Assembly: GCA_964648335.1 (NCBI GenBank)
Contig: CAZYLZ010000001.1
Location: forward strand, 93,449-157,448
Length of the DNA stretch: 64,000 bases
Direction of reading: 5' to 3'
From: an uncultured Candidatus Saccharibacteria bacterium
Lineage (GTDB): Bacteria > Patescibacteriota > Minisyncoccia > Phycocordibacterales > UBA2100
Each line of letters opens with the position of its first letter. Positions within the stretch are counted from its first letter, which is position 1. Below, piece by piece: positions 1 to 25,477 of the stretch. The position numbers and the translations under genes were made by a program. The notes beneath the pieces were generated by a model. The model did no database searches, had not been told where the DNA came from, and saw only the letters and a program-made list of their open reading frames with translations.

Positions 1-3000
1 GGTACTTCACGAGTGAACTCGAAGAAGTCGGTGCGTGGAGGGATCTCTCTGATGTCCGCGTAGTAGTCGAATACGACCGCGGAACCAACAACACCGCCCC
101 TGCCGAGATCTATCTCGACAGTGCCTGGGTGAGTGTCAGTTACAAAGATCGCGTCCAAGGACTTGTCCCGAAAGATGCGGAGGATGTATCGAGCGACGCG
201 CCGGCAAATGTCGCGTTCGAACTGACAGAACCGGAAGACAAGTCGAGCCAGATGCTCTCGCCGGACGGCAAGGACATCCTGTTCCCGTTCGTCGATTCGC
301 TTGACGATACCGGACTCGTGATCCGCGCCGACAAGGATACCTACGATGTTGGGGATGGCGTCGATTCGGTAGCCTACGTAAGTATCACGAACACAAAGAG
401 CGATACAGATTTGTTCGATCTGTATACGGCATTTGCCGAGAACGGTGGCAGTGTGAAGGAAATCGCGCAGTTCTTGCGCAACGTCCCAGAAGTCACCGAA
501 GTCCCGCTCTACGATGATGTAACCTACTTTTGCGAAGGCGGGTGGACGAAAGGATCAGGCGGGATCACCTACGACTGTGCGACCAGTTCCGACTCCAAGC
601 AGTGTTCATGGCTCAGCGAGACGCGAGAGAACTGCCAGGTAAACAACGTCGTCGTCTCGTCGGAGAAGACCACTGATTACAAGAACGCGTGGGTTCCTAT
701 CGAGCTAACTCGCGACGAAACGGCGACGAACAGGTTCTCCACAGGTGCCGGCGCTTTCAAGGCACAGACCGTGACGAAGAGCCTGGTCGAGATCCTCCCT
801 GGGCAAACGGTCTATTTCCGTGTGTCGCTCTCGGGTACCGATGACGGCAAGCACCCTTTCAAGCTCGTGGCGCAAGGCGTATCGGGCTACGGAGACCTCG
901 ACATGACTATGCTCAAGGCAGAATCTTCTCTTGAAGGTGCGCAGGCAACAGGGGTAGCTGCACTGCAGTCCCATGTAAACGAGCAACTTTCGGGACGTAA
1001 GACGTTTGACGGAGACGAGCTGCCCGAGTTCAAGTTCAAGTTCACGTCACAGCGAAATTTCTTCATGCGCTCGATACTCACCTTGGCCCGACGCAATACG
1101 TTCAAAGCAACGGCACAGGTGCGACACGAAAGTGGAGAGATCGAAGATGTCCCTGCAGAAATCCAGTATGGCAAAGATGGCGAATGGACATTGTCGCTCA
1201 CTGAGCATCCGCGCGCCTTCCGTCCGGGAAAGTATTCGATCGAGATTGCAATCAAGGAGGGGTCGCAGACCTACACCGATACGGCGGATTTCTACTGGGG
1301 CGTGCTCGCGATCAATACTGACAAGTCCGCATACCAACCTGGCGACCAGGTGAATCTCATGATGGCAGCACTCGACGATCGTGGTGACACCATCTGCGAT
1401 GCTGATCTTGTCCTGTCTGTGCTCGCGCCGGATGGAGCCTTGAGCGATATACCGGTGCAACGATCAGGGCTCTGTGCGAAGAATAACGTCGTCGACGTCG
1501 CCGACTACCTCGCGACGACGACCGTTGCCCAGACCGGCGTGTATGGAATCGATCTGGCCGAATACGATGCAGACGGCACCGTCGTTCATCGCACGACCGA
1601 TTCGTTTAAGGTAGAAGAGAAATCCCCGTTCGTGATCTCGCGCAAGGGCGCAACGCGTATCTATCCAGTCTCGAGCTATTCGATGGACATAAACGTCACG
1701 GTCGCGATGGACTTTGAAGGAGAGTTCATCGAATCTGTACCATCCGACTTCGAAGTGCTCGACCGTGATGGTGCCGAGATTCGCATGTACGGCTCGGCGA
1801 AGAATCTTGCGTGGCCTTTGAAACTCAAGGAAGGCGAGACGGCGCATTTCCGGTATATCTACGATGCACCTGACATTTCACCGTATCTGTATGCGGTGGG
1901 ACCTGCCGAGATCCGCGCTTCCGCGGGAATCCCGTTTTCCGAAGGAAAACAGTGGAAGCTCGCTTCCGATGCTACCGGCAATATGCTCTTGTACTGGGAT
2001 CAGCCGTACATCCCGACGGGCTGGACGTGCGTATCGTGTTTTGTGACCGATTCGTTTTACCAACGATTCGTCATGGGTTCGTCAACCGCAGGTACTAACG
2101 GCGGTGCTGCGACACATACGCCGACGGCAACCGGCGCTGTCATCGCATCGGCTGGATCGCAGGGGGTAGACACAAACAATCAGGCAACGCCGGTAGTAGC
2201 ACACACGCATACGTACACGCCGACCATTGCCGCTGCAAGCAACCTTCCGGTCTATCGCCAGCTCGCCATAATCCAATCGAATACAGTCGGCGAGCCAACT
2301 TCCATACCAGCGGGTGCGATCGCGATGTTTGACGCAGCTGTTCCAAGCGGGTGGACCCGTTACGCGGCACAGGACGGGGCGTTCGTCCGATCGGAAAGCA
2401 CCAGCACGGCAGGGGTCGCGGCCGGCTCAAATACACATACACACGCGATCAGCGGCAACACGGGCGCAGCTGCAACGACGGCCAACATACGTAACCCAGG
2501 AACCAGCGTTACAGTAGCAGCTGCCGCCCATACGCACTCCGTGAGCACAACCACGGTGAGTATCAGCAACACCCCTCCGTACGTCGAGACTATTTTTGGA
2601 AAGATCACAGCAACGTCGTCTCCGACGAACGCGATGATCGCCATGTGGAGCGGCGACCCTTCGGCAGGATGGACGACGGTCTCGAGTTCTTCGGAAACGT
2701 ATGCCAACAAGTTTCCACTCGCATCGACAACGTATGGTGCAACTGGCGGCGCAAGTACGCATACGCACACTAACATCACCGGGATCACATCGGGTGCGCC
2801 AAGCGCTACCATCGCGCGAGACTCTACTCCTGCGACGACGAACGTAGCGACGGCCGCACATACACACGCCGTGAACGTCACGTTCACGTCGGTCGATTCG
2901 AATCTTCCGCCGTATCGTACAGCGGTCTTCGCCAAGCGCGTGGGCGGTGCAGCGCCAAATGGTCCGACATTGCACGACGTCCTGTTCGATAGCGAAAAGA

Positions 3001-6000
3001 CCGGTACCTCTACACCAACCTTCACGTTCACTGCAAGCGATCCAGACGGCAGCGATACGCTCGTCTATCAGTTCCAGTGGGACGATGATTCCGATCTGAA
3101 TACGTCGCCTCTTGGTGACCGGACATCGGACGTCGAGACCGGCTGCTCGCCGAACTGCTTCTCAAACACCGTCACACCTTCCAATACCTCGCCCTTCAAC
3201 GAGGCCGAAAAGATACAATTCGCGATACAGACGCCGCTCGTTTCCGGCACTACGTACTATTGGCGCGTGCGTGCCAAAGAGAGCGGCGGCGGGGGTACCT
3301 GGGGATCGTGGGCGACGACGACGAGCTTCACCTATGTCGCCAATACTGCACCGTCGCAGTGGTATCAGACCGAAGATGGACAGTTCGATTCTGATACGAA
3401 ATCGAGTGTTGAAACATTCGGTTCCAATAGCGCTCGGCTCGCACTCAATGCGCCGACAGAGGCGCTTATCGCCTACGGCGAGGGTACCGTCCAGACGCCG
3501 CGATATCGCCTTTGGAACGGAACATCGTGGGGAAGTGAACTTTCGGCACAGAGCGTCGGCGGAACTATACGATGGGTGGTGACCAAGGCCGCTCCGACGC
3601 GCAACGAATATGTGCTTGCGACGCTCGATGACGTCAACGACATCAACGTGCAGGTGTATGACGGTGGTGCCGGTACTTGGGGTAACCTTTGGGAAGTAAC
3701 GACGGGTGCTTCGAACTCTCTCCGGAGAGGCGTCGATGTGGCATACGAGTCGCAATCGGGCGACGCCATTGCCGTCTATTGCGATGGCGACGCCGACCCG
3801 GCCTATTACGTCTGGAACGGCACATCATGGACGTTCGGGGGTACTATCGATATCACAAGTGCGAACAATTGCGAATATATTCAGCTTGCATCCGACCCTA
3901 TCTCCGATGAGATCATGCTCATCGAACGCGATACCGGCGCGGCATATGAGGCCCAAGTGTGGAACGGATCCTCGTGGGGGAACTCGAAGGTGATGGGATC
4001 GATGACGGACGTCATTCACGAAGGTATCGCGATACAGTACGAGGAGTCGGGAAATCAGGCGATGGTGCTCACATCCAACGGCAACACCTCGGGATTCCTG
4101 TGGAATACCTGGGACGGTTCGTCGTGGGGCGTGAACACGACCAAAGCACTCGGCGACGACTTCGAGTGGGGTCGGCTCCGTGCTGATGTCGGCAGCGACA
4201 AGCTGTCGCTCTGCTATATCGATAACGATTCCGATACCGGAGTTGTTGAGTGGGATGGTAACGCATGGGGTGCCTTTGCAGCCGCTACCAACGAACGCGA
4301 GACTGCAAGTAATGGCTTCGACGGACGCCCCGAAGACTGCGCCTACGAGACGACCGCGGGGCGTGATGGGTATCTCATGCTTTCGTATTCTGATACTACC
4401 AATGGCCGCTACCAATACTATGATGGCGCGAGCTGGACCGCAGAGGCGAGCCTCAGTACCGCGCAAGACTCCTGGACGGTGGGGAGTGTGCGCACGGGTG
4501 ACGGGATCATACTCTCGATGTTCCAGAACGACGCCGATGGACGCTATGACGTTTCGTCATGGAACGGTGCTTCGTGGTCGGCGCTCCAGACGGTCGAGAC
4601 GGTCCAATCGGTGACCGTCACACCGTTCTTGCAACCGATCGACATGGCGGCGAAGATATATCGCGCAGGATCGGGCTCGATCACGAGCGGTACCATCGAT
4701 TTTGACTCGGTGCCGGGGCGCTCGTCGTGGGGCGACGTCATCTGGCACACGACCGAACCGTCCGGAACCGACGTGAAGATGCAGGTGATGTACGAATCGG
4801 CCGGCACTTGTTCTACCTTAGTGCCTGACGGCACTTTGCCGGGAAACAGTACTGGATTCGATGTAAGCTCGAGTCCCTTGAATCTCTCGGGTCTCTCGAC
4901 CTCGACCTATAACCGCATCTGTCTCAAGTCGACCTTGAGCACCGGAAACCTATCGCAGCCGGCGCTCGATGACTGGACCGTAACCTGGGAGCGACAACCA
5001 TACCTGACCCAGACGCACTTCCGTTGGTACGTAAACGCGACAACCACCTATAACCCGAGCGATCCGTGGCCGGCAGGAACGACGACTGATGCCGTCGAAG
5101 ACGCATCGATCAGCGGGTTGTCGTCGCCGATACCCAACGACATCTTGCGCCTGCGTGTGGGGATATCTGCAGCAAACGTCGCGCTCGGTACAAGCGATCA
5201 GCTCTTCAGATTGCAGTATGCGCAAAGCTCGACGTGCTCGAGCGCGACGAGTTGGATGGATGTAGGCGCGATTGGATCGACGACGGCGAAATGGCGCGGT
5301 GTCGACAACACGTCACTTACAGACGGAACCACACTTACAACGCCTCTGTTGCTTACCGCAGACGTAGGAGAGTCGTACGAGGAAGAGAACGATACGGTGT
5401 TGAATCCGAACTCGATTTCCGTCGGGAATGAAGGTGAATGGGATTGGGTGCTACAGCACAACGCATCAAGCTCCGAGGCCTACTGTTTCCGCATGATTAC
5501 GTCGGGAGGCGAAGTGCTCGATCAGTACGACAACTACCCGACCCTGATCACTAATAATTCTCCTGCGGCACCTTTGCAGGACGTACCGTTCGATAACCAG
5601 GTGGCGTCCTCTACGACACCATGGTTCGACTTTGCAGCCGAGGACCCCGAGTCGGATGACATTACCTATCAGGTACAGATCGACGACGATTCCGCGTTCG
5701 GGTCTATTAACCTCGATCGCAACTCGCAATCGAACCTCAACGATTTCAATAACATAGTCACGCCAGCCGACAAGGACCCGTTCAACTCGGGCCAGATGAT
5801 ACGGTTCATCCCAGCCACTGCACTCACCGACGGCGTCACCTATTACTGGCGCGTGCGCGCGAAGGATCGAAATAAATCAAACGAATGGAGCGCGTGGTCA
5901 GACGTGCGCTCGCTGACTATCGATACTTCGATCATCATCACAACCTGGAAAGAGACAACGCTCTATCAGTTTGCTAACGACACACTCGAAGATTCCGAAG

Positions 6001-9000
6001 CAACCTCTACCAACGACGTCGTCATTACGCCGCCCTTGGTAAACGCTACGACGACGGGCACGCTCATCGACTACGACTGGAAGAATATGGGCAACGCTTG
6101 GGGCGAGCTTTCGTGGACCGACGACGAGAGTGTCGGCGACATCAAATACCATATCGAGTACTTTGACGGGACTTCATGGGCGCTCATCCCCGACTCGGAT
6201 CTCGCGGGCAACGCCTCTGGTTACGACACCTCACCGGTTTCACTCTTGGGCGTGAGTCCGACGGCGTACAACCAGATCCGCGTGAGAGCCGACATGACGA
6301 ACGTCGGCGGCACGCCGCGCTTGCAGGACTGGACCATCAAGTGGGGTATTGGAGTACCGCAACCGACGTTGACCGCGCCGTTCGATAACGAGAAGGTCTC
6401 GACCACGACGCCCTACTTCAAATTCTCGTCGACTGATCCGGAGAATAATGACCTTATCTATCAATTCTCATATTCGTCGAGCCCCTTGTTCACGTCGTCG
6501 ACCACGCGCTCGTCGGACATCGATACCGGTTTCGAGAATTTCGCATCCTCTTCCGATATATCGCCGTTTGCAAGCGGGAGTACCACAAAATACACCCTGC
6601 CATTCGCGAGTCCCTTGACGAACGGAAACACCTACTGGTGGCGTGCCCGTGCACGTGACCCGTCGGGAGGAAACGCGTGGTCGCCGTGGTCAGACGCATA
6701 TAGCCTCACCGTTGACACTGCCGTCATCGTTTCGACATGGTTCCAGAGCACGACCGAGCAGTTTGACACCGATACCTTGAACGACACTGAAGCAAACAGC
6801 GGTACGGCACGAATCGCTGCGACGAACCGAGAAGCGATGGTGGCGTATGCTGAGACGACGGTGCAGACACCTCGTTTCAAGTTTTGGAACGGTATCTCGT
6901 GGGGCTCTAAGCTCAGCGGTGTCTCGGTGGGTGACACGATCCGTTTCGTAGAAGCAGCAGCAGCACCGACTCGTGACGAGTATGCGATAGCGACTCAAGG
7001 AGCGACCGGCGGCGTGAACGTGCAGATCGTCAATGGAACTACCGATGCAGCTGGAAACAAGGTGAATATGGTTCCCGCTGTCACAGGACTCACGCAGCGC
7101 GGTGTGGATGTCACCTACGAAACGATCTCGGGCGACGCAATGGTAGTGTCGTGCAGCGGTACGCAAGCGGTGTACCGTACTTGGAACGGATCCGCGTGGA
7201 GTGCCACCTCGAGTATCACGCTTGCCATCGCAACAAACTGCCAGTGGGTCAAGCTCGCTGCAGACCCGATTTCGGACGAGATAATCTTGGTCGTGCGCGA
7301 CCAGACGACTGGGACGGTCGACTACGAAGCGCTAGTCTGGAATGGCTCATCGTGGGGTAACCCGCGATTCATCGGATCGCAGGTGACCGTGAACGACGAA
7401 GGTATCGCTGTCGAATACGAAGAATCGGGAGACCAAGCTGTCGTTGCAGTCTCGGACGGTGTCAACAACGACTTTGCATGGACCACATGGAACGGGAGTG
7501 CATGGTCGGCTACTTCGACGCGCGCGATCGGGAACGACTTTGCCGGAGGACGCATCAAGCGCGATACCGGATCTGACAACATGGTCATGTGCTACATCGA
7601 CATCGATAGCGATATCGGCATATCACGATGGGACGGCTCCACCTTTCTTGCATTCCAGGAGTTCGAGACCTTAGGCAACAGCTTGAACGGCCGTCCCCAG
7701 TCGTGCGAATTCGAGACGACGGCGGGTCGGGACGGATACATCATAGGACCATACACAAACACAACTATTGGTAACTATGTGGTCTGGGACGGCGCGTCAC
7801 TTACTGGACCGTTTGCTCTGTCGACCTTGCCGGACTCATGGGAAGTCAGATCGGTGAGAACTGATGATGGCAACATCCTTGTGGCCGCATACAACGACGC
7901 CGATACCGAATACGACTTCTCATATTGGAACGGGACGACATGGTCGGCACTGGAGGTCCTGGACGCCAACTCGATAACTACCGTCGTACCTGCAACGATA
8001 CCGATCGACATTGTCGCTCGTAAGTATCCCGAAGTGGTTTCTGGAAATGTGGCATCCACGCCGATCGTTTTCACGAGTGGTCTCGGTCCGAAGTGGGGAT
8101 CGATCTCGTACAGCAAATCGACACCCGGATTGAGTACCTTCAATCTGCAAGTCGAATACCTTACCTCGACCTCGTCGTGGGCGCTTATTCCTGATGCCGA
8201 CCTTTCGGGAAACTCTACCGGTACCACGACTTCGCCCGTCGATATCTCGAACCTCAATTACACGACGTACGGCACACTGCGACTCAAGGCTAACCTCGCC
8301 TGCGCCGGTGTGAACTGTCCTACCCTGAATGATTGGACCTTGGCGTGGTCGGAGGGTGTGCACGTGACCGGTACTGCCAAGCAGTTCGACCAGACGACAA
8401 ACGTCACGAGCGGCACTGCGCAGGTCGCGGTCAATGGCGCGATCCAAGCAGGGAAGACGGCGACGATCTCGGGAGGCACGTTCGATATACCGAACGTCAC
8501 GGCTTTCACTGGGGATATCATCACCGTATTCATTAACGGCGCCAACGATGCCAACGAGGCCGTCGCGATCACGAAGTATGACGGTGTCGGCGACATGACC
8601 GGCCTCAAGCTTTACGAACGGCATCTGACGCTCGGATCGGCCGATAACCCGACACTTACCAACACAGATATCGGTATCTTCGACAACACGGTTTCTGGCG
8701 ACGAAGATATCTTCTACGACGTAGATGCCGGAAACGACCTGAACCTCTGCTCCATAACCGGCTGCTTCAACTCTCGGCTCCTCGTGCAGTCGGGAACCAC
8801 ATACCGGCCGGACAGTTCTTCGAGTGGAAACGTGACGGCCCGCAACCTGCAGATCGACGGAACGCTCGTCGCCGACGGCAACTCGTTCTTCATTTCGGGC
8901 TCCTGGAAGAACAACTCGATATTCACGGCCAACACTTCGACGGTAGTCTTTACCGCGACGAGCACCTCGGAAACGGTTGATTCGATCTCGGCCGCGACGA

Positions 9001-12000: not shown

Positions 12001-15000
12001 GTTTCGGCAATGGAACAGCCTGGCAGTTCTTCAACCTGATAGCTGGCAACGGGTCCGGATCGGGCACGATAACTAAAAGCGGTGCCGGTACGACTACCAT
12101 AAGTAATGTACTCACCGTCGCGACAAACGAAGCGCTCCAAGCAGGATCATCGGACTGGGTACTTAGTAAGGGCGGGACGCCGTTCATAGTCAACGGTCTG
12201 TTCACCGTGCAGACCGCGCCGTTCTACTACACGGCGACCACCTCGACTTCGGTGAAGGCGACGACCTATGCGGCATTGACGCTTGCTCCTGCTGCCGCAG
12301 GCACGCCAACCTTCACACTCTTGGGCGGAACGCTCTCCGCCACCAACTTGACGATCGGCGGGGCCAATCCGGTGACAGTGACTGCCGACACGAACGATCC
12401 ATCGCTTTCGATCACCGGAGACGTTACTATCGGTTCGAGCTCTACACTCATCGCATCGAATGTCGGCGCCTTCGATGTCGGTGGCAGCTGGACGAACTCG
12501 GGTGTTTTCACGCACTCGAGCAACACGGTTCGCTTCAATGGAAGTGCGGTAGGCAAGACCATCACACCAGGATCGTCCTCGTTCTACAATCTGACCATCG
12601 ATGGTCCATCCGGAGGCTGGACGATAAACGGCAACGCGACTTCGACCAACAACACAACTCTCACCAACGCCACCAGCTTTACCGTTTCGCCGAATGTATC
12701 CTTGGCGGTCTTGGGTACGTTCACGAATTCCGTGGGAGGCTCGAGCACGACCTGGGCGACCTCGACGCTCTTCCTCAACTCGGGCACGAGCTACTCTCTG
12801 AATACTAAGACGGCCGCGACCGAGGTGTACGGCACACTAGTAGTAGGTGCCAATACCGATATCCGCATGTGGAACTCGTCGGCTGCAACGACCAGCGTCA
12901 ACGCGACCGGCTCTCTTTACTCGCAAGACCACGCTGCGGTCGACGGAAGCCTCTATATCTGGGGCGAGTACATACGTAGTTCGGGATCGGACTACTGGAG
13001 CTATGCCACCGACTTCGATGGAACATCGCTCGGCGGCTCATCGCGCCAGGTGAACGTGCGCGTGGCCACGAGCTCTTCGATATCGATGACGGCGGGCGTG
13101 CTCGACATCATCGGTGCCCCCACTGCTTCGACGACCATCCAAGTACAAAGCACAGGCAATTACTCGTTCGGTGTCTCAGGAGGCACCTTGAATGCGAGTT
13201 ACTACGTCTTGAGAGACACCGATGCTAATGGCCTCAACCTCACTGGTTCTCCCACTATCACCTCTTTGTCGCGCGGAGACTTCTTGCTCGGGGTCAATGG
13301 CGGCACGACGATGACAGTCGCCGGAAGCGTCATAACGACGAACCCGCTCAAGATTATGCTCGGAAACAAATTCGCGACCTCGACAGGAATCACCTCGGGA
13401 TCGAACGTGAAGGTGACTGGCACAACCGGATCGTTCTGGAAGTTCAACCTGCACTACGGCGCCCTCGGCGGAGAGTCGTATGACGACGATCCGGGAGGGA
13501 ATCCGGGCTATGTGCGCTGGGACGACAGTGACGGCAACATCGTCATCGCAGGTACCGTTTATTCAGACGAAGGGTCGACAGTAAGTACTGTATGCGACAA
13601 CTCGACGCAGGTAGTGCATCTCATGGTCGAGGCCGCAGGCAGCTATACCGGATCGTGCAATAGCTTGACAGGCGCCTACACGATTTCGAATGTGTCGTAT
13701 AACCCGGGTGACAACCTTACTGTGTACCTCGATACGAACGGCGGACGTCGCGGTGCCAATATCAGTACCGATCCGAGCGTTAGTATCTCAGGCATGGACA
13801 TCTATGAGAATCGCGTCATCGTCCGCCACGAAGATACTGCGCCGCTTACCATCGCTGACATGGCCATATTCGACCACGACAGCGACTCGGACATACCATT
13901 TAACGCGACCGATGCCGGATCGGACACACTGGTAGTCGAACCGGATACCAAACTCATCGTCTGGACGGGTAAGACATTCGCACCGGCAGGCGACATCACC
14001 CTGCAATCCGGCGGATCCGGAAATGTCTGGGACGGATCGCTCCAGCTATTCAATAACGCGGTCTTCTCTTCTTCGGGAACGCAGTCGCACACGATTGGCG
14101 GAAATCTGACGGTAGGTACTGGTGCAAGTCTCCAAGCGGCAAGTACGACCTTTACCTTTACTGCTACGACTACCGGCAAGACAATCACGCCGAACGGCTC
14201 GAGCTTCTACAACCTCGTGTTCAACGGCTCGGGTGGAAACTGGGCGTTCTCGAACTCGACCGCGACCACGTCGAACGACTTCACAATCACGACCGGTACC
14301 GTCACCTTGCCGACGGCGACCACAACCGTAGGCGGTTCGTTCCAGAACAACGGCGGAACCTTCATGCATAACAATGGCGCGGTCGTCATGAGCTCGACGG
14401 CCTCTGGAAAGACCGTCAAAGCAGGAACAAACAATCCGTTCTACACCCTTGCCTTCAATGGCGTCGGGGGCGCATGGACCATGACCGACACGAACGCGAC
14501 GTCTTCGAACAATTTCACGATAACCAACGGAAGCGTCACCGCGCCGACAGGGGTCCTGGCAGTGGGCGGCTCGTTCCAAAATGCTGGCACGTATACCAAC
14601 AGCAGCGGAACACTCAAGCTCACTGCCGTAGCGGTCGGTAAGATCCTGCAGACCGGATCGTCGAATCTCTACAACCTCGTCGTAAACGGATCGGGCGGTG
14701 CTTGGACATGGAGCGACACGAACGCGACGACAACGAACACCGTAACTATCTCAAGCGGTACACTCACACTTCCTGCGGGAACGCTCGCAGTCTTAGGTTC
14801 GTACGATTCGACCGGCGGGGCATTCACGCCAGGAACCGGAACGGTCCGATTTGCGGCGACCGCGACTGGAAAGACCGTCACGCCGAGCTCCTCTTCGTTC
14901 TACAACCTCGTATTCGACTCTGCGACCGGAGGATGGACCATCACGGGAAATGCGACCTCGACCAATAACACATCCATACTCAATGCATCCAACTTCACAC

Positions 15001-18000
15001 TCTCACCAGGCGTGTCGCTCGGAGTGTCCGGTGCCTTCACGAATTCGGTAGGCGGAGCGAATACCACATTCACGAACTCGACCCTCTACTTGAATTCGGC
15101 TTCGACCTATTCAATAAATACGAAAACGGCTCCAGCTGAGGTATACGGCACGCTATTAATAGGTGGGAACACCGACGTTCGCATGTGGAATTCGTCTGCT
15201 GCAACGACCAGCGTCAACTCGACCGGCTCTCTCTACTCGCAAGACCACGCTGCGGTCGACGGTAGTTTGGCAATCTATGGAGAGTATGTCCGGACGTCAG
15301 GTACCGAATACTGGACGTATGCTACCGACTTCGACGGCACCGCGCTTGGTGGTTCTTCTCGTGCTGTCACCGTAAACGTCGCTACCAGCTCTACCCTGGC
15401 CTTCTCGGGCGGAACCCTCAACATGACCGGAGCGGTTGGAGCGACGACGACGGTCCGCACGACCGGATCTACTGGTACCTACAGCTTTGCGGTTTCTGGC
15501 GGCACCATCGACGCTAGCTACTATAGAATCCAAAATACCGACACGAACGGCCTTTCTATCTCGGGATCTCCGGCAATCACCTCGCTCTCCAACGGCGATT
15601 ACGAGCTCTACACCAATGGAGGCACCATGATGACGATCGCCGCAGCGGCAATCGACGCAAATGCGAGCCTCTCCGTAAGTAATGTCCGTTTCGCCACCTC
15701 GACCGGAATCGCCAGCGGTTACAACGTGACGCGAACCGGCACGCCGATAAACGCATGGACATTTACCGGTCACTACGGAAACTACGCGGGCGAGAATTAT
15801 GACAACGACGGCGGAGATGCCTGTGGAAAAATCCGGTGGGACGACAGTACCTGTCTTCTCGTAAGCCAGGATCACTACCGCTGGCGAGCTGACGACGGCG
15901 GAGAAGGAGCTCCGAATTCGGACTGGTACGATCTTACGTTCTCCAAACGCCAGAAGATTGGCATCACCAACAACGTAGCGACCGCATACACGAACCTACC
16001 GGTCAAGCTCATCGTTAACTACGACGGCGATATGCAGAGCGATTTCGACGACCTGCGGTTCACCGATTCAAGCGGCACGACGACCTTGCGCTATTGGATC
16101 GAGTCATCGACTGCATCGGCGTCTTCAACTCTCTGGGTCAAGGTCCCGTCACTGCCGGCATCGGGCTCCGCTGTCGTGTATATGTACTACGGCAACAACT
16201 CGACGACTACCGCGTCGAGTGGCACGAATACGTTCAAGTTCTTCGACGACTTCGAAGACAACAACATCACTGAGTACTCAGGCAATACGACCATGTTCAC
16301 GACGAGCACGAGCTTCAATCATGACGGTACCTACGGACTCGATGCAGGATCAAACTTCGACCAGAGAACTACCGGCGGTATCTATCGGACGGGATCCTTG
16401 TCGGCACGCGGCGATACTGTGAGCTTCTATCAGTATGTCGACAACGCGATTCCCGACGAGCCATGTACACTCTTTGGTGTCCAAGGATCCGGGTCGAACT
16501 ATGCGGTTTGTCTCGATCAGGACCCATCTGACAAGGTGTCGATCTCGAAAAACGTCACATCGAACGACGAAGGTGGTACAGTGCTCGCTTCGACGACCCT
16601 GAGCTGGGCGACCGGCTGGTATCAGGTGAAGGTCGATTGGCTCACCACTAACGCGATAAACGTAAACGTCTATAACAGCTCTGGTGCGCTCTTCGCGACC
16701 GCCACGGCAAGCGACTCAACGTGGTCGAGCGGCGGTGTCGGCTTCAGCTATTGGTTCATGTACGGCGGATGGGACACGTATACCGTCAAGCAGTACGTCG
16801 CTACGGATCCGAGCTATAAGTTCGGCGTCGAACAGACGTATGGCGGCGCTACCTGGTATGCTGCGGAGGACACGGCGTACACCACCCGCAGCTACGGAAA
16901 TAACCTACGCCTTCGTTTCTCGATTCAGAACACCGCGAGCGCTGTCTTCGGTCGCCTCTTCCGACTGCAATACGCACCGAAAGCCTCGGCGCTTAACTGC
17001 GAATCGGTCCCGTATGTAAACTACAACGACGTACCTACGCACGCCGGCGGGTGTGGATCGTCCGCCGCGTGCATGGCATCGACCACCAATTATGCAAGCG
17101 GCGATGTGACCGCGGGTCTCCTTACGTATCCCGCATCAGCTACCTTCAATGCCGGGTCGGTGATTGAAGAGCCGTCAAACCAGACCGCAAGCTCCACGGT
17201 CTCGGCAGCAGGTGCTACCGAAGTTGAGTACAACTTCCAGATGACAGCAAATGCCACGGACAATACCTACTGCTTCAGGGCGTCCAATGGCGGCAGCGAC
17301 CTTGATAACTACACGCACGTCGCAGAACTCGACATGATCTACGTTCCGATCATCTCGAACCATAAGCTCAATAACGATGCGGATATCGCCCTCACCGAAG
17401 GAGCATCGACCACCATCGCGGTCACCGCGACCGTGACCGATCAGAACGGCTACGCCGACCTGAGTCTCGCTTCCTCGACTGTCTATCGTTCGGGCGTCGG
17501 ATCGATCTGCAGCGCCGACGCAAACTCGTGCTACCGTCTCGGTACATCATCCTGCTCGTATTCTGGCTGCTCTGGAGCTTCGTGCACGCTTACGTGCAAT
17601 GCGAACGTTCAGTACATCGCCGATCCAACCGACGTAGGCAGCTCCTATTCTGCAGAGAGCTGGCTCTCGGAATTGTGGATTACCGACCTCGAGGGCAATA
17701 CGGCGACTTCGTCATCGGTATCGGTCGATCTCCTGACCCTTTACGGCCTTACCGTGAATACGGCGAATATCGACTTCGGCTCTCTCTCGGTCGGATCGAC
17801 GACGGAGAATGTGAATGCGACGACGACTATCCAGAACACAGGTAACACGAACATCAACATCTCGGTCGCCGGAACCGATCTGGCCGGAACGCAGGGAACC
17901 ATCGCAGTGGGTGAGATCAAGTATGCGACTACGACGTTCGCGTACGGAAGCTGCGCGGTCTGCCAGTTCCTGACTGGCGGCGCAACACCGGTCGTCGTCG

Positions 18001-18128
18001 ATCTTCCGAAGCCGACGTCGACTTCGACGCCTATCACAGACGATCTGTACTGGGGTCTTAACATCCCGAACGGCACGAGCGCCGAGCTTCATAGCGGTAC
18101 TAATACGTTCTTAGCAACATCGCCATAA
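1..18128 (+). CDS. giant multidomain cell-surface adhesin-like protein (5' partial, at least 6000 aa): phage-tail-fibre-like HxH repeats, FN3-like modules, WNGxSW propeller-like modules, long beta-helix-like repeat array, DUF2341-like plus LamG-like module, and a C-terminal domain shared with CDS 23410..25293
   Basis: One uninterrupted frame from nt 3 (no in-frame stop upstream of the first GTG at 129) to the stop at 18126-18128. Motifs read from the translation: TYYWRVRAK(D/E) three times; paired HTHT/HTHA/HTHS motifs three times; (V/Y)WNG(S/T)SW about 12 times; repeated GTF(M/T/N)HN.G...KT units; DWYDLTFSKRQKI..LRFTDSSG..LRYWIE..LWVKVP..YMYYGNN (DUF2341-like) followed by a jelly-roll-like segment. 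Confidence 0.9.
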   Translation, partial: YFTSELEEVGAWRDLSDVRVVVEYDRGTNNTAPAEIYLDSAWVSVSYKDRVQGLVPKDAEDVSSDAPANVAFELTEPEDKSSQMLSPDGKDILFPFVDSLDDTGLVIRADKDTYDVGDGVDSVAYVSITNTKSDTDLFDLYTAFAENGGSVKEIAQFLRNVPEVTEVPLYDDVTYFCEGGWTKGSGGITYDCATSSDSKQCSWLSETRENCQVNNVVVSSEKTTDYKNAWVPIELTRDETATNRFSTGAGAFKAQTVTKSLVEILPGQTVYFRVSLSGTDDGKHPFKLVAQGVSGYGDLDMTMLKAESSLEGAQATGVAALQSHVNEQLSGRKTFDGDELPEFKFKFTSQRNFFMRSILTLARRNTFKATAQVRHESGEIEDVPAEIQYGKDGEWTLSLTEHPRAFRPGKYSIEIAIKEGSQTYTDTADFYWGVLAINTDKSAYQPGDQVNLMMAALDDRGDTICDADLVLSVLAPDGALSDIPVQRSGLCAKNNVVDVADYLATTTVAQTGVYGIDLAEYDADGTVVHRTTDSFKVEEKSPFVISRKGATRIYPVSSYSMDINVTVAMDFEGEFIESVPSDFEVLDRDGAEIRMYGSAKNLAWPLKLKEGETAHFRYIYDAPDISPYLYAVGPAEIRASAGIPFSEGKQWKLASDATGNMLLYWDQPYIPTGWTCVSCFVTDSFYQRFVMGSSTAGTNGGAATHTPTATGAVIASAGSQGVDTNNQATPVVAHTHTYTPTIAAASNLPVYRQLAIIQSNTVGEPTSIPAGAIAMFDAAVPSGWTRYAAQDGAFVRSESTSTAGVAAGSNTHTHAISGNTGAAATTANIRNPGTSVTVAAAAHTHSVSTTTVSISNTPPYVETIFGKITATSSPTNAMIAMWSGDPSAGWTTVSSSSETYANKFPLASTTYGATGGASTHTHTNITGITSGAPSATIARDSTPATTNVATAAHTHAVNVTFTSVDSNLPPYRTAVFAKRVGGAAPNGPTLHDVLFDSEKTGTSTPTFTFTASDPDGSDTLVYQFQWDDDSDLNTSPLGDRTSDVETGCSPNCFSNTVTPSNTSPFNEAEKIQFAIQTPLVSGTTYYWRVRAKESGGGGTWGSWATTTSFTYVANTAPSQWYQTEDGQFDSDTKSSVETFGSNSARLALNAPTEALIAYGEGTVQTPRYRLWNGTSWGSELSAQSVGGTIRWVVTKAAPTRNEYVLATLDDVNDINVQVYDGGAGTWGNLWEVTTGASNSLRRGVDVAYESQSGDAIAVYCDGDADPAYYVWNGTSWTFGGTIDITSANNCEYIQLASDPISDEIMLIERDTGAAYEAQVWNGSSWGNSKVMGSMTDVIHEGIAIQYEESGNQAMVLTSNGNTSGFLWNTWDGSSWGVNTTKALGDDFEWGRLRADVGSDKLSLCYIDNDSDTGVVEWDGNAWGAFAAATNERETASNGFDGRPEDCAYETTAGRDGYLMLSYSDTTNGRYQYYDGASWTAEASLSTAQDSWTVGSVRTGDGIILSMFQNDADGRYDVSSWNGASWSALQTVETVQSVTVTPFLQPIDMAAKIYRAGSGSITSGTIDFDSVPGRSSWGDVIWHTTEPSGTDVKMQVMYESAGTCSTLVPDGTLPGNSTGFDVSSSPLNLSGLSTSTYNRICLKSTLSTGNLSQPALDDWTVTWERQPYLTQTHFRWYVNATTTYNPSDPWPAGTTTDAVEDASISGLSSPIPNDILRLRVGISAANVALGTSDQLFRLQYAQSSTCSSATSWMDVGAIGSTTAKWRGVDNTSLTDGTTLTTPLLLTADVGESYEEENDTVLNPNSISVGNEGEWDWVLQHNASSSEAYCFRMITSGGEVLDQYDNYPTLITNNSPAAPLQDVPFDNQVASSTTPWFDFAAEDPESDDITYQVQIDDDSAFGSINLDRNSQSNLNDFNNIVTPADKDPFNSGQMIRFIPATALTDGVTYYWRVRAKDRNKSNEWSAWSDVRSLTIDTSIIITTWKETTLYQFANDTLEDSEATSTNDVVITPPLVNATTTGTLIDYDWKNMGNAWGELSWTDDESVGDIKYHIEYFDGTSWALIPDSDLAGNASGYDTSPVSLLGVSPTAYNQIRVRADMTNVGGTPRLQDWTIKWGIGVPQPTLTAPFDNEKVSTTTPYFKFSSTDPENNDLIYQFSYSSSPLFTSSTTRSSDIDTGFENFASSSDISPFASGSTTKYTLPFASPLTNGNTYWWRARARDPSGGNAWSPWSDAYSLTVDTAVIVSTWFQSTTEQFDTDTLNDTEANSGTARIAATNREAMVAYAETTVQTPRFKFWNGISWGSKLSGVSVGDTIRFVEAAAAPTRDEYAIATQGATGGVNVQIVNGTTDAAGNKVNMVPAVTGLTQRGVDVTYETISGDAMVVSCSGTQAVYRTWNGSAWSATSSITLAIATNCQWVKLAADPISDEIILVVRDQTTGTVDYEALVWNGSSWGNPRFIGSQVTVNDEGIAVEYEESGDQAVVAVSDGVNNDFAWTTWNGSAWSATSTRAIGNDFAGGRIKRDTGSDNMVMCYIDIDSDIGISRWDGSTFLAFQEFETLGNSLNGRPQSCEFETTAGRDGYIIGPYTNTTIGNYVVWDGASLTGPFALSTLPDSWEVRSVRTDDGNILVAAYNDADTEYDFSYWNGTTWSALEVLDANSITTVVPATIPIDIVARKYPEVVSGNVASTPIVFTSGLGPKWGSISYSKSTPGLSTFNLQVEYLTSTSSWALIPDADLSGNSTGTTTSPVDISNLNYTTYGTLRLKANLACAGVNCPTLNDWTLAWSEGVHVTGTAKQFDQTTNVTSGTAQVAVNGAIQAGKTATISGGTFDIPNVTAFTGDIITVFINGANDANEAVAITKYDGVGDMTGLKLYERHLTLGSADNPTLTNTDIGIFDNTVSGDEDIFYDVDAGNDLNLCSITGCFNSRLLVQSGTTYRPDSSSSGNVTARNLQIDGTLVADGNSFFISGSWKNNSIFTANTSTVVFTATSTSETVDSISAATSTFYAVTFGQTSGTATWTLSSDLLASSTVSVNFGTLAQSNRAIMLSSNLSFGASGAFTKGTGTTTFMGSGSNTWTDNTVAKQDLGEVMIDGSAKTIALGSGVRATNITIGSDDILTAGTSFSIDVVGNWINNNIFTAQTGTVNFVSTTAGRTITQGSSNFYNLTFNGVAGNWAFTGANLGVDNNFTISTGTVAMPTGTTTVAGSFDTNGGTFMHNNGVVLLTASGAKTVRPGASSFYDLTFNGSGSWTFVDANATTSRNTFLLAGTLTAPSGTLAIGGSFARNGGTFTHNSGTLKFTAASSKTIRLNGQNASNITFDGVGGAWSFVDTFATTTGSVTILNGYPSLASSTLAVGGSFDSAAGTFNHASGTVRFFATAAGKTIAPGTSSFANLVFDSTSGGWTITGNATTTASTTITNASSLTLSSGRSLEVKGGFTNAVGGANTTWTGSTLYLNSGTSYSLNTKTTGGDVYGTLLVGTNTNIRSWNSDAGTTTTLTGASVYSQDNNAVDGSLSIYGTYVRSSGTDYWSYATDFDGVALGGSSRQVTVRVATSSTMTFSGGALNIVGAAGATTTVRTSGSTGTYGFAVSGGSLNASFYRVQNTDASGLSLSGTPTVTSLADGDFELSTNSGSLITVASTVIDANPLAEFQRVRFATTTGITAGFNVTETGTPSSYWWFRSHYGNFAGESYDNDPGGDPGHIHWDDSGFTISVAGTVYTDEGVTHATNPLCDGSTPVVKLVVSGAASYTASCASGSGAYLMPAVQFSGDAVFTVFLDTNGGTRAATVTRTPSINLTGLDLYQNALVVRHEGSSALTIANLALYDSSDDSDIAYTATTGSPDALVLEPDNELYVLTGKTFAPGGNVTLTSGGSGTNRDARLFVATSSVYAASTTESHSIGGNLVVSGSSTFTTASTTFTFTATTTGKSIYTAQPITFHDATFNGSGANWNFVSATTSTTTISHALTITAGTISGTSDIKVSTGGISGSGTVAMTGGTVRLEGTGSFGNGTAWQFFNLIAGNGSGSGTITKSGAGTTTISNVLTVATNEALQAGSSDWVLSKGGTPFIVNGLFTVQTAPFYYTATTSTSVKATTYAALTLAPAAAGTPTFTLLGGTLSATNLTIGGANPVTVTADTNDPSLSITGDVTIGSSSTLIASNVGAFDVGGSWTNSGVFTHSSNTVRFNGSAVGKTITPGSSSFYNLTIDGPSGGWTINGNATSTNNTTLTNATSFTVSPNVSLAVLGTFTNSVGGSSTTWATSTLFLNSGTSYSLNTKTAATEVYGTLVVGANTDIRMWNSSAATTSVNATGSLYSQDHAAVDGSLYIWGEYIRSSGSDYWSYATDFDGTSLGGSSRQVNVRVATSSSISMTAGVLDIIGAPTASTTIQVQSTGNYSFGVSGGTLNASYYVLRDTDANGLNLTGSPTITSLSRGDFLLGVNGGTTMTVAGSVITTNPLKIMLGNKFATSTGITSGSNVKVTGTTGSFWKFNLHYGALGGESYDDDPGGNPGYVRWDDSDGNIVIAGTVYSDEGSTVSTVCDNSTQVVHLMVEAAGSYTGSCNSLTGAYTISNVSYNPGDNLTVYLDTNGGRRGANISTDPSVSISGMDIYENRVIVRHEDTAPLTIADMAIFDHDSDSDIPFNATDAGSDTLVVEPDTKLIVWTGKTFAPAGDITLQSGGSGNVWDGSLQLFNNAVFSSSGTQSHTIGGNLTVGTGASLQAASTTFTFTATTTGKTITPNGSSFYNLVFNGSGGNWAFSNSTATTSNDFTITTGTVTLPTATTTVGGSFQNNGGTFMHNNGAVVMSSTASGKTVKAGTNNPFYTLAFNGVGGAWTMTDTNATSSNNFTITNGSVTAPTGVLAVGGSFQNAGTYTNSSGTLKLTAVAVGKILQTGSSNLYNLVVNGSGGAWTWSDTNATTTNTVTISSGTLTLPAGTLAVLGSYDSTGGAFTPGTGTVRFAATATGKTVTPSSSSFYNLVFDSATGGWTITGNATSTNNTSILNASNFTLSPGVSLGVSGAFTNSVGGANTTFTNSTLYLNSASTYSINTKTAPAEVYGTLLIGGNTDVRMWNSSAATTSVNSTGSLYSQDHAAVDGSLAIYGEYVRTSGTEYWTYATDFDGTALGGSSRAVTVNVATSSTLAFSGGTLNMTGAVGATTTVRTTGSTGTYSFAVSGGTIDASYYRIQNTDTNGLSISGSPAITSLSNGDYELYTNGGTMMTIAAAAIDANASLSVSNVRFATSTGIASGYNVTRTGTPINAWTFTGHYGNYAGENYDNDGGDACGKIRWDDSTCLLVSQDHYRWRADDGGEGAPNSDWYDLTFSKRQKIGITNNVATAYTNLPVKLIVNYDGDMQSDFDDLRFTDSSGTTTLRYWIESSTASASSTLWVKVPSLPASGSAVVYMYYGNNSTTTASSGTNTFKFFDDFEDNNITEYSGNTTMFTTSTSFNHDGTYGLDAGSNFDQRTTGGIYRTGSLSARGDTVSFYQYVDNAIPDEPCTLFGVQGSGSNYAVCLDQDPSDKVSISKNVTSNDEGGTVLASTTLSWATGWYQVKVDWLTTNAINVNVYNSSGALFATATASDSTWSSGGVGFSYWFMYGGWDTYTVKQYVATDPSYKFGVEQTYGGATWYAAEDTAYTTRSYGNNLRLRFSIQNTASAVFGRLFRLQYAPKASALNCESVPYVNYNDVPTHAGGCGSSAACMASTTNYASGDVTAGLLTYPASATFNAGSVIEEPSNQTASSTVSAAGATEVEYNFQMTANATDNTYCFRASNGGSDLDNYTHVAELDMIYVPIISNHKLNNDADIALTEGASTTIAVTATVTDQNGYADLSLASSTVYRSGVGSICSADANSCYRLGTSSCSYSGCSGASCTLTCNANVQYIADPTDVGSSYSAESWLSELWITDLEGNTATSSSVSVDLLTLYGLTVNTANIDFGSLSVGSTTENVNATTTIQNTGNTNINISVAGTDLAGTQGTIAVGEIKYATTTFAYGSCAVCQFLTGGATPVVVDLPKPTSTSTPITDDLYWGLNIPNGTSAELHSGTNTFLATSP
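2080..2960 (+). repeat. three tandem modules of about 320 nt, each encoding paired H-T-H-(T/A/S) motifs and ending in NLP(V/P)Y, within the giant CDS
   Basis: Translation shows AATHTPT..AHTHTYTP..NLPVY / SNTHTHAIS..AHTHSVS..NTPPY / ASTHTHTNI..AHTHAVN..NLPPY. Confidence 0.7.
3470..4720 (+). repeat. first copy of a WNGxSW repeat module of about 1.2 kb (about 6 blades, propeller-like) within the giant CDS
   Basis: LWNGTSWG, VWNGTSW, VWNGSSWG, TWDGSSWG, EWDGNAWG, YYDGASW, SWNGASW spaced about 55-70 aa apart. Confidence 0.7.
6830..7990 (+). repeat. second copy of the WNGxSW repeat module within the giant CDS
   Basis: Collinear paralogue of 3470..4720: FWNGISWG, TWNGSAW, VWNGSSWG, TWNGSAW, RWDGSTF, VWDGASL, YWNGTTW; the intervening motifs are the same (VQTPR(Y/F)(R/K), PTR(N/D)EY, ETTAGRDGY). 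Confidence 0.7.
9470..15850 (+). repeat. array of short beta-helix-like units organised into a triplicated super-repeat of about 2.3-2.4 kb inside the giant CDS. Conserved cores lie at about 10290-11640, 12720-14040 and 15040-15850
   Basis: Equivalent nucleotide landmarks at 10293, 12720 and 15037 (GGFTN(A/S)VGG..T(W/F)T.STL(Y/F)LNS..TKT). Copies 2 and 3 share stretches of more than 90% nt identity (e.g. 12860-12960 vs 15180-15275). Confidence 0.8.
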
Positions 18129-18132
18129 CCAT

Positions 18133-18819
18133 ATGAACCAACAAACACAACCACAGTCACGTGTCTCATCAGTAGCACGACTCGTGACCATGCCTGCGAT
18201 CCTACTTCTCATTGCGGCTGCTGTGCTCGCGTACTTGTTTCTCCGTTCGAATACCGAGCTTTCGAACGTATATGCCGACTACGACCGATCGGGGAAGACA
18301 TATTCGGATGCGGCGTTTCTGGTCGGTTCTAACAGCAATCCGCTCCGTATCGAGCTCAATCAGGTGCTTGCCGAAGTTCTTGGCAAGGCCATGACTCCGG
18401 ACGAGCGGATGGAAAAAGTACGGCGCGGCAGGGAATTACTCGTCGAATCAGCACGACAGATTGATGCTATCGGAGACAGCGGTGACGTATCGTCGAGTTC
18501 AATCAAGCTTCTCGACTCGACGTCGCGCGGATTGGGGAACCTCTATGCTCGACCTGGAGCGGCGAAAGTGGTCGAACTCTCACGAACGAAGAGCAACATG
18601 ATTGCGGACATCCGCGGGCTCTCGTACAAGACCAACTACTACATCTCGCAGATCTTCGACCGTATCGAGCGGGATGGAGGAGCGCTGACTCAGGATCATA
18701 TTAAGGAGCTCAACGCGAGGATCCCCGAACTGGAGGCTGAATTTGACCGCCGAGCGAACCTGTACACTGATCTCGAGAGCATCAACTATAAGATACAGAA
18801 CGAGATGGCTGGCAGATGA
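18133..18819 (+). CDS. hypothetical membrane-anchored protein (one N-terminal TM helix, then a probable coiled-coil)
   Basis: ORF begins 5 nt after the giant gene stop; TM helix LVTMPAILLLIAAAVLAYLFL; no recognisable catalytic motif. Confidence 0.6.
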   Translation: MNQQTQPQSRVSSVARLVTMPAILLLIAAAVLAYLFLRSNTELSNVYADYDRSGKTYSDAAFLVGSNSNPLRIELNQVLAEVLGKAMTPDERMEKVRRGRELLVESARQIDAIGDSGDVSSSSIKLLDSTSRGLGNLYARPGAAKVVELSRTKSNMIADIRGLSYKTNYYISQIFDRIERDGGALTQDHIKELNARIPELEAEFDRRANLYTDLESINYKIQNEMAGR

Positions 18820-18870
18820 CCTCTATGAAGCGTGGATTGCAGGGCGGACGTTGTGGTAAACTTATCCGAT

Positions 18871-19218
18871 ATGGATGAACAGATACCGCCAGTACCACCG
18901 GTGCCGCGCCGAACGCGCCCAGGCCTTTTCTCCCGCATTTGGCACACCGCCGTGGTCGCCTTCGATAATCTCTTGGATTCTTCGGTCAGGAATGTGGCTA
19001 TCATGTGGCGTGAGTTCGACCTCTTCTTTGGTGCACTCGCGTTCTTCGTTGGACTCCTCGGTTTCGACGCCGGTAAGTTCTGCGACGGCAACACAGCCGA
19101 CTACCTCTCATGCACACGGCCTACCGCCTACTACTATTTCGATTCGATCGACATCGCACTCGTCGTCCTCGGTGCTTTCTTTATCATGTTGTGGACTCTG
19201 AAGCGCGCTCGGCGATAG
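18871..19218 (+). CDS. small hypothetical membrane protein (two predicted TM helices); an alternative GTG start lies at 18832
   Basis: ATG at 18871; hydrophobic helices FFGALAFFVGLLGF and IALVVLGAFFIMLWTL; start codon is ambiguous. Confidence 0.4.
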   Translation: MDEQIPPVPPVPRRTRPGLFSRIWHTAVVAFDNLLDSSVRNVAIMWREFDLFFGALAFFVGLLGFDAGKFCDGNTADYLSCTRPTAYYYFDSIDIALVVLGAFFIMLWTLKRARR

Positions 19219-19303
19219 ATTGTTTCTAGTACTGGATATCTGGGTAACGGGGGATGATACAATTCCACTATGTGTTTTAGTGTTTTAACACGCGGCTAAC
19301 CGT

Positions 19304-20743: not shown

Positions 20744-20744
20744 T

Positions 20745-22091: not shown

Positions 22092-22095
22092 ACGT

Positions 22096-25293: not shown

Positions 25294-25477
25294 AGATGCT
25301 TTTGGAGCATGCATTGCGGTGAAAACGTTCGCAGTACATGCATTCTTTTACCTACAAACAGCCCACCGCCTTTCATTCATCGGGTGAGGTATCCCGACGG
25401 TACTCGGGCCATTGCGCAAGATACGCAGTGTTTGCGTGCTCAAACGGCAAAAAACGAGGGTCTCACGTGCTAGAATT

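Follow-up and report, generated by a model that had tools for sequence, protein, structure and literature searches.

Does an uninterrupted reading frame of 18 kb in an uncultured Candidatus Saccharibacteria bacterium represent a real gene, and if so, what would its product do? We addressed this question for the giant gene at the start of a 64,000-nt stretch of DNA, referred to here as the window (contig CAZYLZ010000001.1 of assembly GCA_964648335.1, positions 93,449 to 157,448 of the forward strand; GTDB lineage Patescibacteriota, Minisyncoccia, Phycocordibacterales, UBA2100). An initial annotation made from the sequence had described a giant mosaic surface protein with a phage fiber-like N-terminal region and a DUF2341/LamG tail. 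[quoted passage not shown] One of its modules appears to share ancestry with phage tail proteins, and on balance we favor the reading that the whole protein is an anchored adhesin fiber.

An intact reading frame of more than 6,000 codons

The plus-strand frame that begins at nt 3 runs through 6,041 codons before reaching its stop codon at 18126-18128. The open reading frame (ORF) listed for the gene, 129-18128, begins at a GTG codon at 129 because the frame runs off the start of the window; residues are numbered here so that amino acid i begins at nt 3+3(i-1). The closest database relative, P0001 (NCBI GCA_021733405.1, 59% identity), aligns its residue 313 to residue 1 of the window protein, so that about 312 N-terminal residues are absent from the window and the full protein would have ~6,350 amino acids.

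Several findings bear on whether the frame is intact. The protein is rich in threonine (13.9%), serine (11.4%), glycine (10.1%) and alanine (9.4%) and is not low-complexity, as self-comparison yields discrete modules and diverged internal duplications. The sole direct DNA repeat family within the gene is 69 nt long with copies no more than 75% identical, making repeat collapse unlikely. Positions 15693-22158 of the window, and with them the 3' end of the gene, are matched at 100% identity by the Logan assembly of run SRR35242010, which is independent; three further runs carry the region downstream of the gene at 99.5-100% identity. Across a set of 82 related loci that we compared for module order, open frame and synteny, the homologous frame is open to the end of the locus in nearly all, and exceeds 4,000 amino acids in many. 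At least ten full-length homologs (including P0185, P0187, P0190, P0191, P0201, P0216, P0217, P0220, P0221 and P0296) are encoded as single ORFs of 5,600-7,456 amino acids, with modules in nearly the same order and 25-60% identity, and the modules common to this set span the protein from the N-terminal region and anchor through the C-terminal domains. The proposal of a single ORF of at least 6,000 amino acids thus stands, and the concerns raised along with it, that the gene might be chimeric or merely low-complexity, are answered by the exact match in an independent assembly and the shared module order for the first, and by the resolved modules for the second.

A conserved family of giant proteins in Paceibacteria

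When an alignment of amino acids 338-660, the family-defining M2 module, was scanned against one genome per GTDB species, 347 loci were found. Among the 80 of these that were listed, nearly all have Patescibacteria-type labels (Kaiserbacteria, Adlerbacteria, Lloydbacteria, Paceibacterota and Parcubacteria, with a generic "Saccharibacteria" on third-party metagenome-assembled genomes (MAGs)), and the exceptions are five Gammaproteobacteria labels, one Woesearchaeota and a few unclassified entries, which we suspect to be mislabeled. The C-terminal 752 amino acids have ~80 near-full-length homologs at 42-61% identity, which bear the name "DUF2341 domain-containing protein" and are assigned to Minisyncoccia, Paceibacterota or Kaiserbacteria.

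The run M2, [HxH], FN3, WNGxSW, small domain, FRW and beta-helix recurs with little change of order in about 50 of the 82 related loci; the brackets mark a module that is not always present. In full, the family order begins with a transmembrane (TM) anchor ahead of this run and ends with the DUF2341-jelly roll pair and the C-terminal domains. The window protein shows the same order, its anchor position lying outside the window. On these sequence comparisons, the giant gene is a member of the family named above. Its CPR/Paceibacteria relatives bear out the description of a giant mosaic, all-beta surface protein from an uncultivated small-genome bacterium. What did not hold up is the view that this combination of modules is unusual, as the same modules recur in nearly the same order as single ORFs in many Paceibacteria, together with a conserved gene cluster. 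As a separate observation, contig CAZGKM010000003.1 carries two M2-bearing genes within ~21 kb (L066 and L069), so some genomes hold paralogs of the family.

A module related to phage tail proteins

The HxH module consists of three tandem repeats sharing the motifs I.MW..P.GW, GG.THTH, AHTH.V and N.PPY. It occurs in 17 of the 82 related loci, and the HxH motifs are conserved across all 17. In an AlphaFold model of the module (predicted local distance difference test (pLDDT) 87.5, predicted template modeling score (pTM) 0.83), each repeat has the same strand pattern, with the HxH motifs in or beside strands and uncertain parts limited to three variable loops.

Profiles and intermediate sequences link this module to phages. 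A profile of 30 single repeats matched the tail fiber of Pseudomonas phage Pa223 in the PDB (9nxk, three chains) at E 1.3e-3, in an alignment that spans the I.MW..P.GW, HxH and PP[YF]...F motifs, and the next match was a tail-collar-like C24 protein. A phmmer search against the PDB returned TAL-effector repeats alone, which were judged spurious. Database searches with the module recovered stand-alone proteins of ~500-570 amino acids covering all three repeats. The 563-amino-acid protein P0122 matches the module at E 1e-44 with 38% identity and itself matches phrog_5795 ("tail protein"). It is encoded in the tail-gene cluster of a 37-kb phage-like contig (L085, Logan ERR3772645_9189), where its neighbors are a tail-fiber gene (phrog_9942, E 9e-24) and genes for a virion structural protein and for HNH endonucleases. 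Another intermediate, P0143, passes the Pfam Collar cut-off (27.6 versus 24) and aligns to the HxH repeat profile with 97.5% probability in hhalign. Scanning IMG/VR with a 13-sequence alignment of the module identified 80 viral contigs that encode relatives, many spanning three repeats, with a median ORF of 432 amino acids and ~10 HxH motifs. Ten of these viral ORFs match phrog_5795 (with E values as low as 5e-74), phrog_8469 ("tail fiber protein") or phrog_1800 ("tail collar fiber protein").

Read through these intermediates and profiles, the sequences indicate that the HxH module is homologous to phage tail proteins. The motifs I.MW..P.GW, strand HxH and N.PPY...F are common to the module and to phage tail fiber and tail-collar proteins (Collar PF07484; the three PHROG families just named; 9nxk; the HxH tips of T4 gp12 and gp37), and homologous three-repeat proteins of ~430-560 amino acids lie within phage tail modules. 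Two differences stand out. The HxH module is internal to a cellular protein of 6,000 amino acids, and the window protein itself scores below all of these Pfam and PHROG thresholds. The matched fiber tips 9nxk and 6ov6 were deposited with three chains, whereas the giant protein has three repeats in one chain; T4 gp12 and gp37 are homotrimers.

The coordinates of the initial annotation, those of the three HxH repeats included, hold to within ~100 nt, but its wording of a phage fiber-like N-terminal region was too broad. The phage relationship is confined to the HxH module, which is 320 amino acids long and occurs in 17 of 82 loci, and homologs indicate that the protein really begins with a membrane anchor. 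A prophage or tailocin origin of the giant locus was considered and rejected, as its flanking genes are conserved cellular neighbors in MAGs of CPR bacteria and the family searches brought up neither capsid nor terminase. Separately, a group of small cellular proteins of ~380-570 amino acids (P0126, P0134-P0136 and P0138) joins the HxH module with DUF2341. One of them, P0135, sits among the housekeeping genes cysS, recR and dnaX, so that the combination of HxH with DUF2341 is not restricted to the giant protein.

Stalk, tip and the remaining beta modules

The distal part of the protein would form a stalk and a tip (Table 1). The stalk comprises three diverged super-repeats with 40-74% identity, and its modeled part matches beta-helix proteins, the best and longest matches being the non-enzymatic adhesin passengers Pet, VacA, EtpA and HMW1. 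At the fold level, the stalk is thus predicted to contain a beta-helix. The beta-helix-like units noted initially are supported by this model of part of the stalk, but their extent of ~6.4 kb was an underestimate, the stalk being nearer 7.4 kb.

DUF2341 follows the stalk, as first proposed, with a Pfam score well above the cut-off (91.8 bits versus 23.4, E 3.8e-26). A model of the C-terminal 1,200 amino acids (pLDDT 89.8) places a jelly roll directly after it, which at the fold level is of the ConA-like/LamG type; this agrees with the LamG-like domain suggested from sequence. The domains in this region were placed from the DSSP string and aligned lengths, as the fold-search output gives no matched query residues. 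The window protein gave no match to Pfam Laminin_G_3, leaving the jelly roll without a sequence-level family match, and phmmer of the C-terminal 752 amino acids against the PDB gave no match. The cysteine-bearing C-terminal domain could be located more precisely, with a cluster of six cysteines at amino acids 5836-5865 in the first of the two C-terminal domains.

Between the anchor and the stalk lie several smaller modules. M2 resembles an immunoglobulin (Ig)-like MG2 domain, with a Pfam match (E 4e-7, 30.8 bits) just under the cut-off of 32.8, and its profile gave a weak PDB match to a bacterial alpha-2-macroglobulin (E 0.11). Pfam Ig_Rha78A_N (PF25788) scored 38.8 bits against a cut-off of 27.4 on the piece that carries copies 2 and 3 of the FN3-like module; the score of copy 1 was 20.6 bits, but its sequence shares 46% identity with copy 2. 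The FN3-like modules with the TYYWRVRAK hallmark are supported.

The two WNGxSW modules of ~1.2 kb were also found as annotated. Their ~8 repeats of ~49 amino acids would fit a putative beta-propeller, going by the repeat pattern. No credible relative was found in the PDB with a single sequence, a blade profile or a full-module profile, there was no Pfam match to the module, and Pfam searches of ten stand-alone relatives were uninformative. We take a resemblance to RSL/AAL/PLL-like lectins to be a lead and do not claim it. Matches to the module were found in 1,542 representative proteins, 333 of them at E ≤ 1e-30, and some of the carriers are stand-alone proteins of 440-560 amino acids. Among its other carriers, P0192 (6,719 amino acids) and P0193 (7,926 amino acids) are giants with 21-22 matched WNGxSW stretches and none of the other modules of the window protein. 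The stand-alone P0227 (550 amino acids) has a weak prepilin N-methylation motif (17.1 bits versus a cut-off of 21.2), a hint that the module may also exist in a form associated with pili.

Table 1. Features of the giant gene and its downstream neighbors in the window (aa, amino acids; all positions in nt)
Feature	Positions	Strand	Remarks
Giant ORF	3-18128	+	6,041 codons plus stop; 5' end cut by window edge, ~312 codons outside
Cys-bearing N-proximal extracellular region, conserved	3-1013	+	aa 1-337; in homologs preceded by TM helix and acidic/Pro/Thr-rich linker
Family-defining module M2, MG2-like Ig domain	1014-1982	+	aa 338-660; motifs FYWGVLAxN, DAPDISPY
Three tandem HxH repeats, phage tail fiber/tail collar-like	1980-2942	+	aa 660-763, 764-869, 870-980
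FN3/Ig-like module 1 (TYYWRVRAK)	2952-3371	+	aa 984-1123
WNGxSW repeat module 1, putative beta-propeller	3450-4682	+	aa 1150-1560; ~8 blades of ~49 aa
Small beta domain	4683-5138	+	aa 1561-1712; further copies at 6030-6386 and 8028-8390
FRW...LRLR...FRLQYA domain	5139-5558	+	aa 1713-1852; similar motif set again near C-terminus
FN3/Ig-like module 2 (TYYWRVRAK)	5559-6008	+	aa 1853-2002
FN3/Ig-like module 3 (TYYWRVRAK)	6363-6800	+	aa 2121-2266
WNGxSW repeat module 2	6822-8048	+	aa 2274-2682; ~8 units of ~49 aa
Beta-helix stalk (predicted)	8490-15872	+	aa 2830-5290, ~7.4 kb; 75-77-aa units, inserted beta-sandwich domains
DUF2341 (PF10102) beta-sandwich	15915-16277	+	HYRWRADDGG strand precedes; Pfam match aa 5347-5422
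ConA/LamG-type jelly roll, lectin or carbohydrate-binding module-like (predicted)	16293-16802	+	boundaries from model DSSP string
Second FRLQYA-type beta domain	16812-17345	+	from model and motif
Two C-terminal all-beta, probably Ig-like domains	17349-18125	+	fold from DSSP string only; no C-terminal TM, no LPXTG
228-aa single-TM protein	18133-18819	+	start 5 nt past giant stop
Secreted FN3/Pur_ac_phosph_N protein	19304-20743	+	conserved downstream neighbor
ABC ATPase and MacB_PCD/FtsX permease	20745-23304	+	conserved downstream neighbors
627-aa protein, 354-aa protein, Big_6/DUF4215/dockerin protein	23410-27647	+	conserved run

Predicted membrane anchor and topology

The N-termini of P0001, P0002, P0004, P0007 and the full-length set begin with a short basic stretch, taken to be cytoplasmic, and a single TM helix. 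After these come a conserved HIFPT..GW motif and a low-complexity linker rich in acidic residues, Pro and Thr. The window protein itself has no other hydrophobic or TM segment (maximum 19-amino-acid hydropathy 1.29), no hydrophobic segment at its C-terminus and no LPXTG motif. It also has no beta-barrel and no Autotransporter match in Pfam, its C-terminus being made of beta-sandwich domains. Pfam found no two-partner-secretion (TPS) domain (Haemagg_act) in the protein, and there is no Omp85-type or TpsB partner gene near the giant gene in the window. Cohesin and dockerin were absent from the giant protein by Pfam and, for dockerin, by a search for a dockerin-like calcium-binding motif. The giant protein thus lacks the hallmarks by which autotransporters, two-partner-secretion exoproteins, LPXTG adhesins and cellulosomal components are defined.

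A proposed adhesin fiber and its alternatives

We propose that the giant protein is an N-terminally anchored adhesin fiber with a lectin-fold tip that would serve attachment to a partner cell. We consider this proposal probable, with high confidence in the surface-fiber part and moderate confidence in the adhesion function. After export by Sec, the protein would be tethered by its N-terminal helix, and because it would be retained by that helix, its C-terminus would be the distal end. Moving outward from the membrane, Ig/MG2-like domains would be followed by the triple HxH module, which would derive from phage tail fibers and probably folds as a single-chain mimic of the fiber trimer with a putative histidine-bound metal. 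Beyond it would come two FN3 plus WNGxSW-repeat units, then the beta-helical stalk, and finally a tip of DUF2341, the ConA-like lectin and Ig-like domains. Assuming 4.8 Å per helix turn and ~20 globular domains, the fiber would be on the order of 100 nm long. Binding to glycans or surface proteins of a host or partner would be the task of the lectin tip, and probably of the WNGxSW and HxH modules as well, and would keep the ultra-small cell against that other cell. Neighboring gene products (HSP20, the cohesin protein, the FN3 protein, the MacB-type ABC transporter and the dockerin proteins) likely aid in making the fiber or act alongside it.

Several points weigh against this proposal. The lectin assignment of the jelly roll is a fold-level prediction, and ConA-like folds and beta-helices are also found in glycoside hydrolases, lyases and phage depolymerases. 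The N-terminal anchor of the window protein would lie outside the window and is predicted from homologs. Direct family searches with the HxH module and window protein returned no Pfam Collar (PF07484) at E ≤ 0.1, no PHROG at E ≤ 0.01 and no NCBIfam; for PHROGs and NCBIfam, the giant protein was searched as ten overlapping pieces, with nothing found. Finally, three related loci carry the homologous region as 3 to more than 10 ORFs that abut one another (L002 10001-30365, L083 1-12952, L084 1-12994), which may reflect sequencing or frameshift errors, pseudogenization or genuine multi-gene versions.

The alternative that survives best, though we judge it unlikely, is that the protein is a structural component of the envelope, such as an S-layer-associated fiber or a cohesin-dockerin scaffold, and not a host-specific adhesin. 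The gene sits in a ~50-kb island of almost only secreted or anchored proteins, dockerin proteins are encoded close by, relatives have a cohesin protein directly upstream, and the family is conserved in many Paceibacteria, all of which would suit such a role. However, the giant protein has neither a cohesin or dockerin match nor the motif, and the lectin tip, the module resembling phage receptor-binding proteins and the variable content (HxH in 17 of 82 loci) suit ligand recognition better than a uniform lattice.

The shared folds noted above would also allow a machine that degrades polysaccharide or cell wall, with which the cell would digest the envelope of its host. In this reading, the beta-helix is a depolymerase or lyase comparable to phage tailspikes or pectate lyases, and carbohydrate binding falls to the ConA-like module. 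We find this quite unlikely, as no glycoside hydrolase, lyase or peptidase family was found by Pfam, NCBIfam or PHROGs in the ten overlapping pieces, and the top and longest beta-helix matches are adhesin passengers with no enzymatic activity.

An improbable third reading is a contact-dependent exoprotein comparable to FhaB/CdiA or to autotransporters, which the cell would secrete and release for delivery of a toxic or effector domain. Its giant size and a beta-helix like that of two-partner-secretion and autotransporter passengers would fit, and giant Patescibacteria proteins have been compared with FhaB (PMC11809585). Yet Pfam detected no TPS domain, autotransporter barrel or toxin domain, the window has no TpsB/Omp85 partner, homologs begin with a TM anchor, and the C-terminus consists of lectin and all-beta, probably Ig-like domains.

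An artefactual origin of the 18-kb ORF, through a chimeric assembly, collapsed repeats or read-through of a pseudogene, could draw on the three loci with several ORFs, but it has next to no chance and is effectively refuted by 6,041 stop-free codons, long open frames in related loci, a lack of near-identical DNA repeats, the 100% match in an independent assembly and at least ten full-length single-ORF homologs.

Gene neighborhood

The giant gene lies in a conserved setting. In 44-47 of the 82 related loci, the upstream genes encode (signal peptidase S26), HSP20 and then a cohesin-domain protein; the HSP20 and cohesin genes are known from relatives only, because the window starts inside the giant gene. 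The cohesin-domain protein is directly upstream in 47 of 82 loci (e.g., L001 6041-7522 and L002 8336-9511). Downstream, the window, L083 and L084 have in common a run of an FN3/Pur_ac_phosph_N protein, an ABC ATPase, a MacB_PCD/FtsX permease, a ~620-amino-acid protein, a ~330-amino-acid protein and a Big_6/DUF4215/dockerin protein. The ABC ATPase and MacB_PCD/FtsX pair neighbors the giant gene across genomes (L083, L084 and L168), and a functional link to the giant protein, for example in export or mechanotransmission, is possible. Two Big_6/Big_13 proteins in the window bear Dockerin_1, at 26415-27647 (+, 20.6 bits) and 52458-54182 (+, 31.9 bits). Taken with the upstream cohesin genes of relatives, these sequence matches suggest a cohesin-dockerin surface assembly in Paceibacteria.

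Across ~36 kb of the window (18133-54182), nearly all proteins have an N-terminal signal or TM segment, several also have a C-terminal TM segment, and most have no Pfam family, so that this region looks like a surface-protein island. It includes a second giant ORF (31739-43387, +) encoding 3,882 amino acids with 16.8% threonine and an N-terminal signal or anchor. The second protein has no similarity to the first; its middle gives a borderline match to the Peptidase_G2 IMC autoproteolytic domain (25.3 bits versus a cut-off of 25), and there is also a borderline Gly_rich_2 match. At the far end of the window (60001-64000), G+C drops from ~0.55 to 0.37, and the genes on the minus strand include one for a DUF4238 protein (60999-61964) and another for an SMC_N-like ATPase (62624-63925). 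The segment may be foreign or defense-related DNA.

Comparison with known systems

Patescibacteria are known to encode proteins of more than 4,000 amino acids, many with DUF2341 or FhaB domains, that were proposed to be adhesins (Dutkiewicz et al. 2024, PMC11809585). Lectin-type proteins have been proposed to mediate attachment in Patescibacteria (PMC12911398), and DUF2341 proteins to act as pilus-tip adhesins in archaea (PMC4858521). The giants of Dutkiewicz et al. share with the window family the phylum, size class, DUF2341 domain and a proposed role in adhesion or host interaction. In contrast, no full-length homologs were found for those giants and rapid domain shuffling was suggested, whereas the window family keeps nearly the same module order and a conserved gene cluster across many species; they may also bear an FhaB domain, which the window family does not.

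Giant proteins in Omnitrophota, some of which exceed the ~40,000 amino acids of Titin, contain antiparallel beta-helix and SecA-like domains, and their proposed role is digestion of the host's envelope (West-Roberts et al. 2023 preprint). Those proteins are likewise very large, beta-rich and on the surface of ultra-small host-dependent bacteria, with some types associated with dockerins, but they belong to another phylum, reach much larger sizes and have no sequence relationship to the window protein that we found.

A further comparison is with the beta-helical fibrillar adhesins, namely the passengers of autotransporters and two-partner secretion (Pet, VacA p55, EtpA, HMW1 and FHA) and the Lactobacillus reuteri SRRP. 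The window protein differs from these in having no beta-barrel, TPS domain or LPXTG motif. Its polarity would also be reversed, with an N-terminal TM helix as anchor and the tip at the C-terminus, in an organism that probably has no outer membrane. The resemblance extends only to the probable mode of action. The jelly roll is similarly comparable at the fold level to CBM66 and to ConA-like/LamG lectins (legume lectins, ERGIC-53 and the lectin domain of S. epidermidis Aap), but in the window protein it is fused to DUF2341.

Implications for host attachment

The giant-fiber family, its conserved architecture and gene cluster, and the phage origin of the HxH module are not described in the literature that we found. 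The idea of attachment by giant lectin-bearing CPR surface proteins is already in that literature, and the finding therefore refines this picture and overturns nothing in it. A more ambitious interpretation is that Paceibacteria built the receptor-binding module of a phage tail fiber into a membrane-anchored fiber, so that a trimer-mimicking, metal-site HxH chain, the lectin tip and the gene cluster would together form a lineage-wide host-capture apparatus, a kind of cellular tail fiber by which host range is set in these episymbionts. We regard this as a tentative idea that is more doubtful than the adhesin proposal itself. If it were true, the related phage modules would suggest that genes have been exchanged and perhaps that the same receptors are used. 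From an evolutionary viewpoint, the connection of a cellular adhesin with phage tail proteins is moderately interesting.

For the thousands of uncultivated Paceibacteria/CPR lineages, little is known of how hosts are recognized and held, and the literature that we found names no attachment factor other than type IV pili. A conserved single-gene fiber of 5,600-7,500 amino acids with defined modules and a defined set of neighbors provides a concrete attachment candidate. Its modules are small enough for expression and binding tests, and its variation between species, such as the presence or absence of HxH, could be compared with host range.

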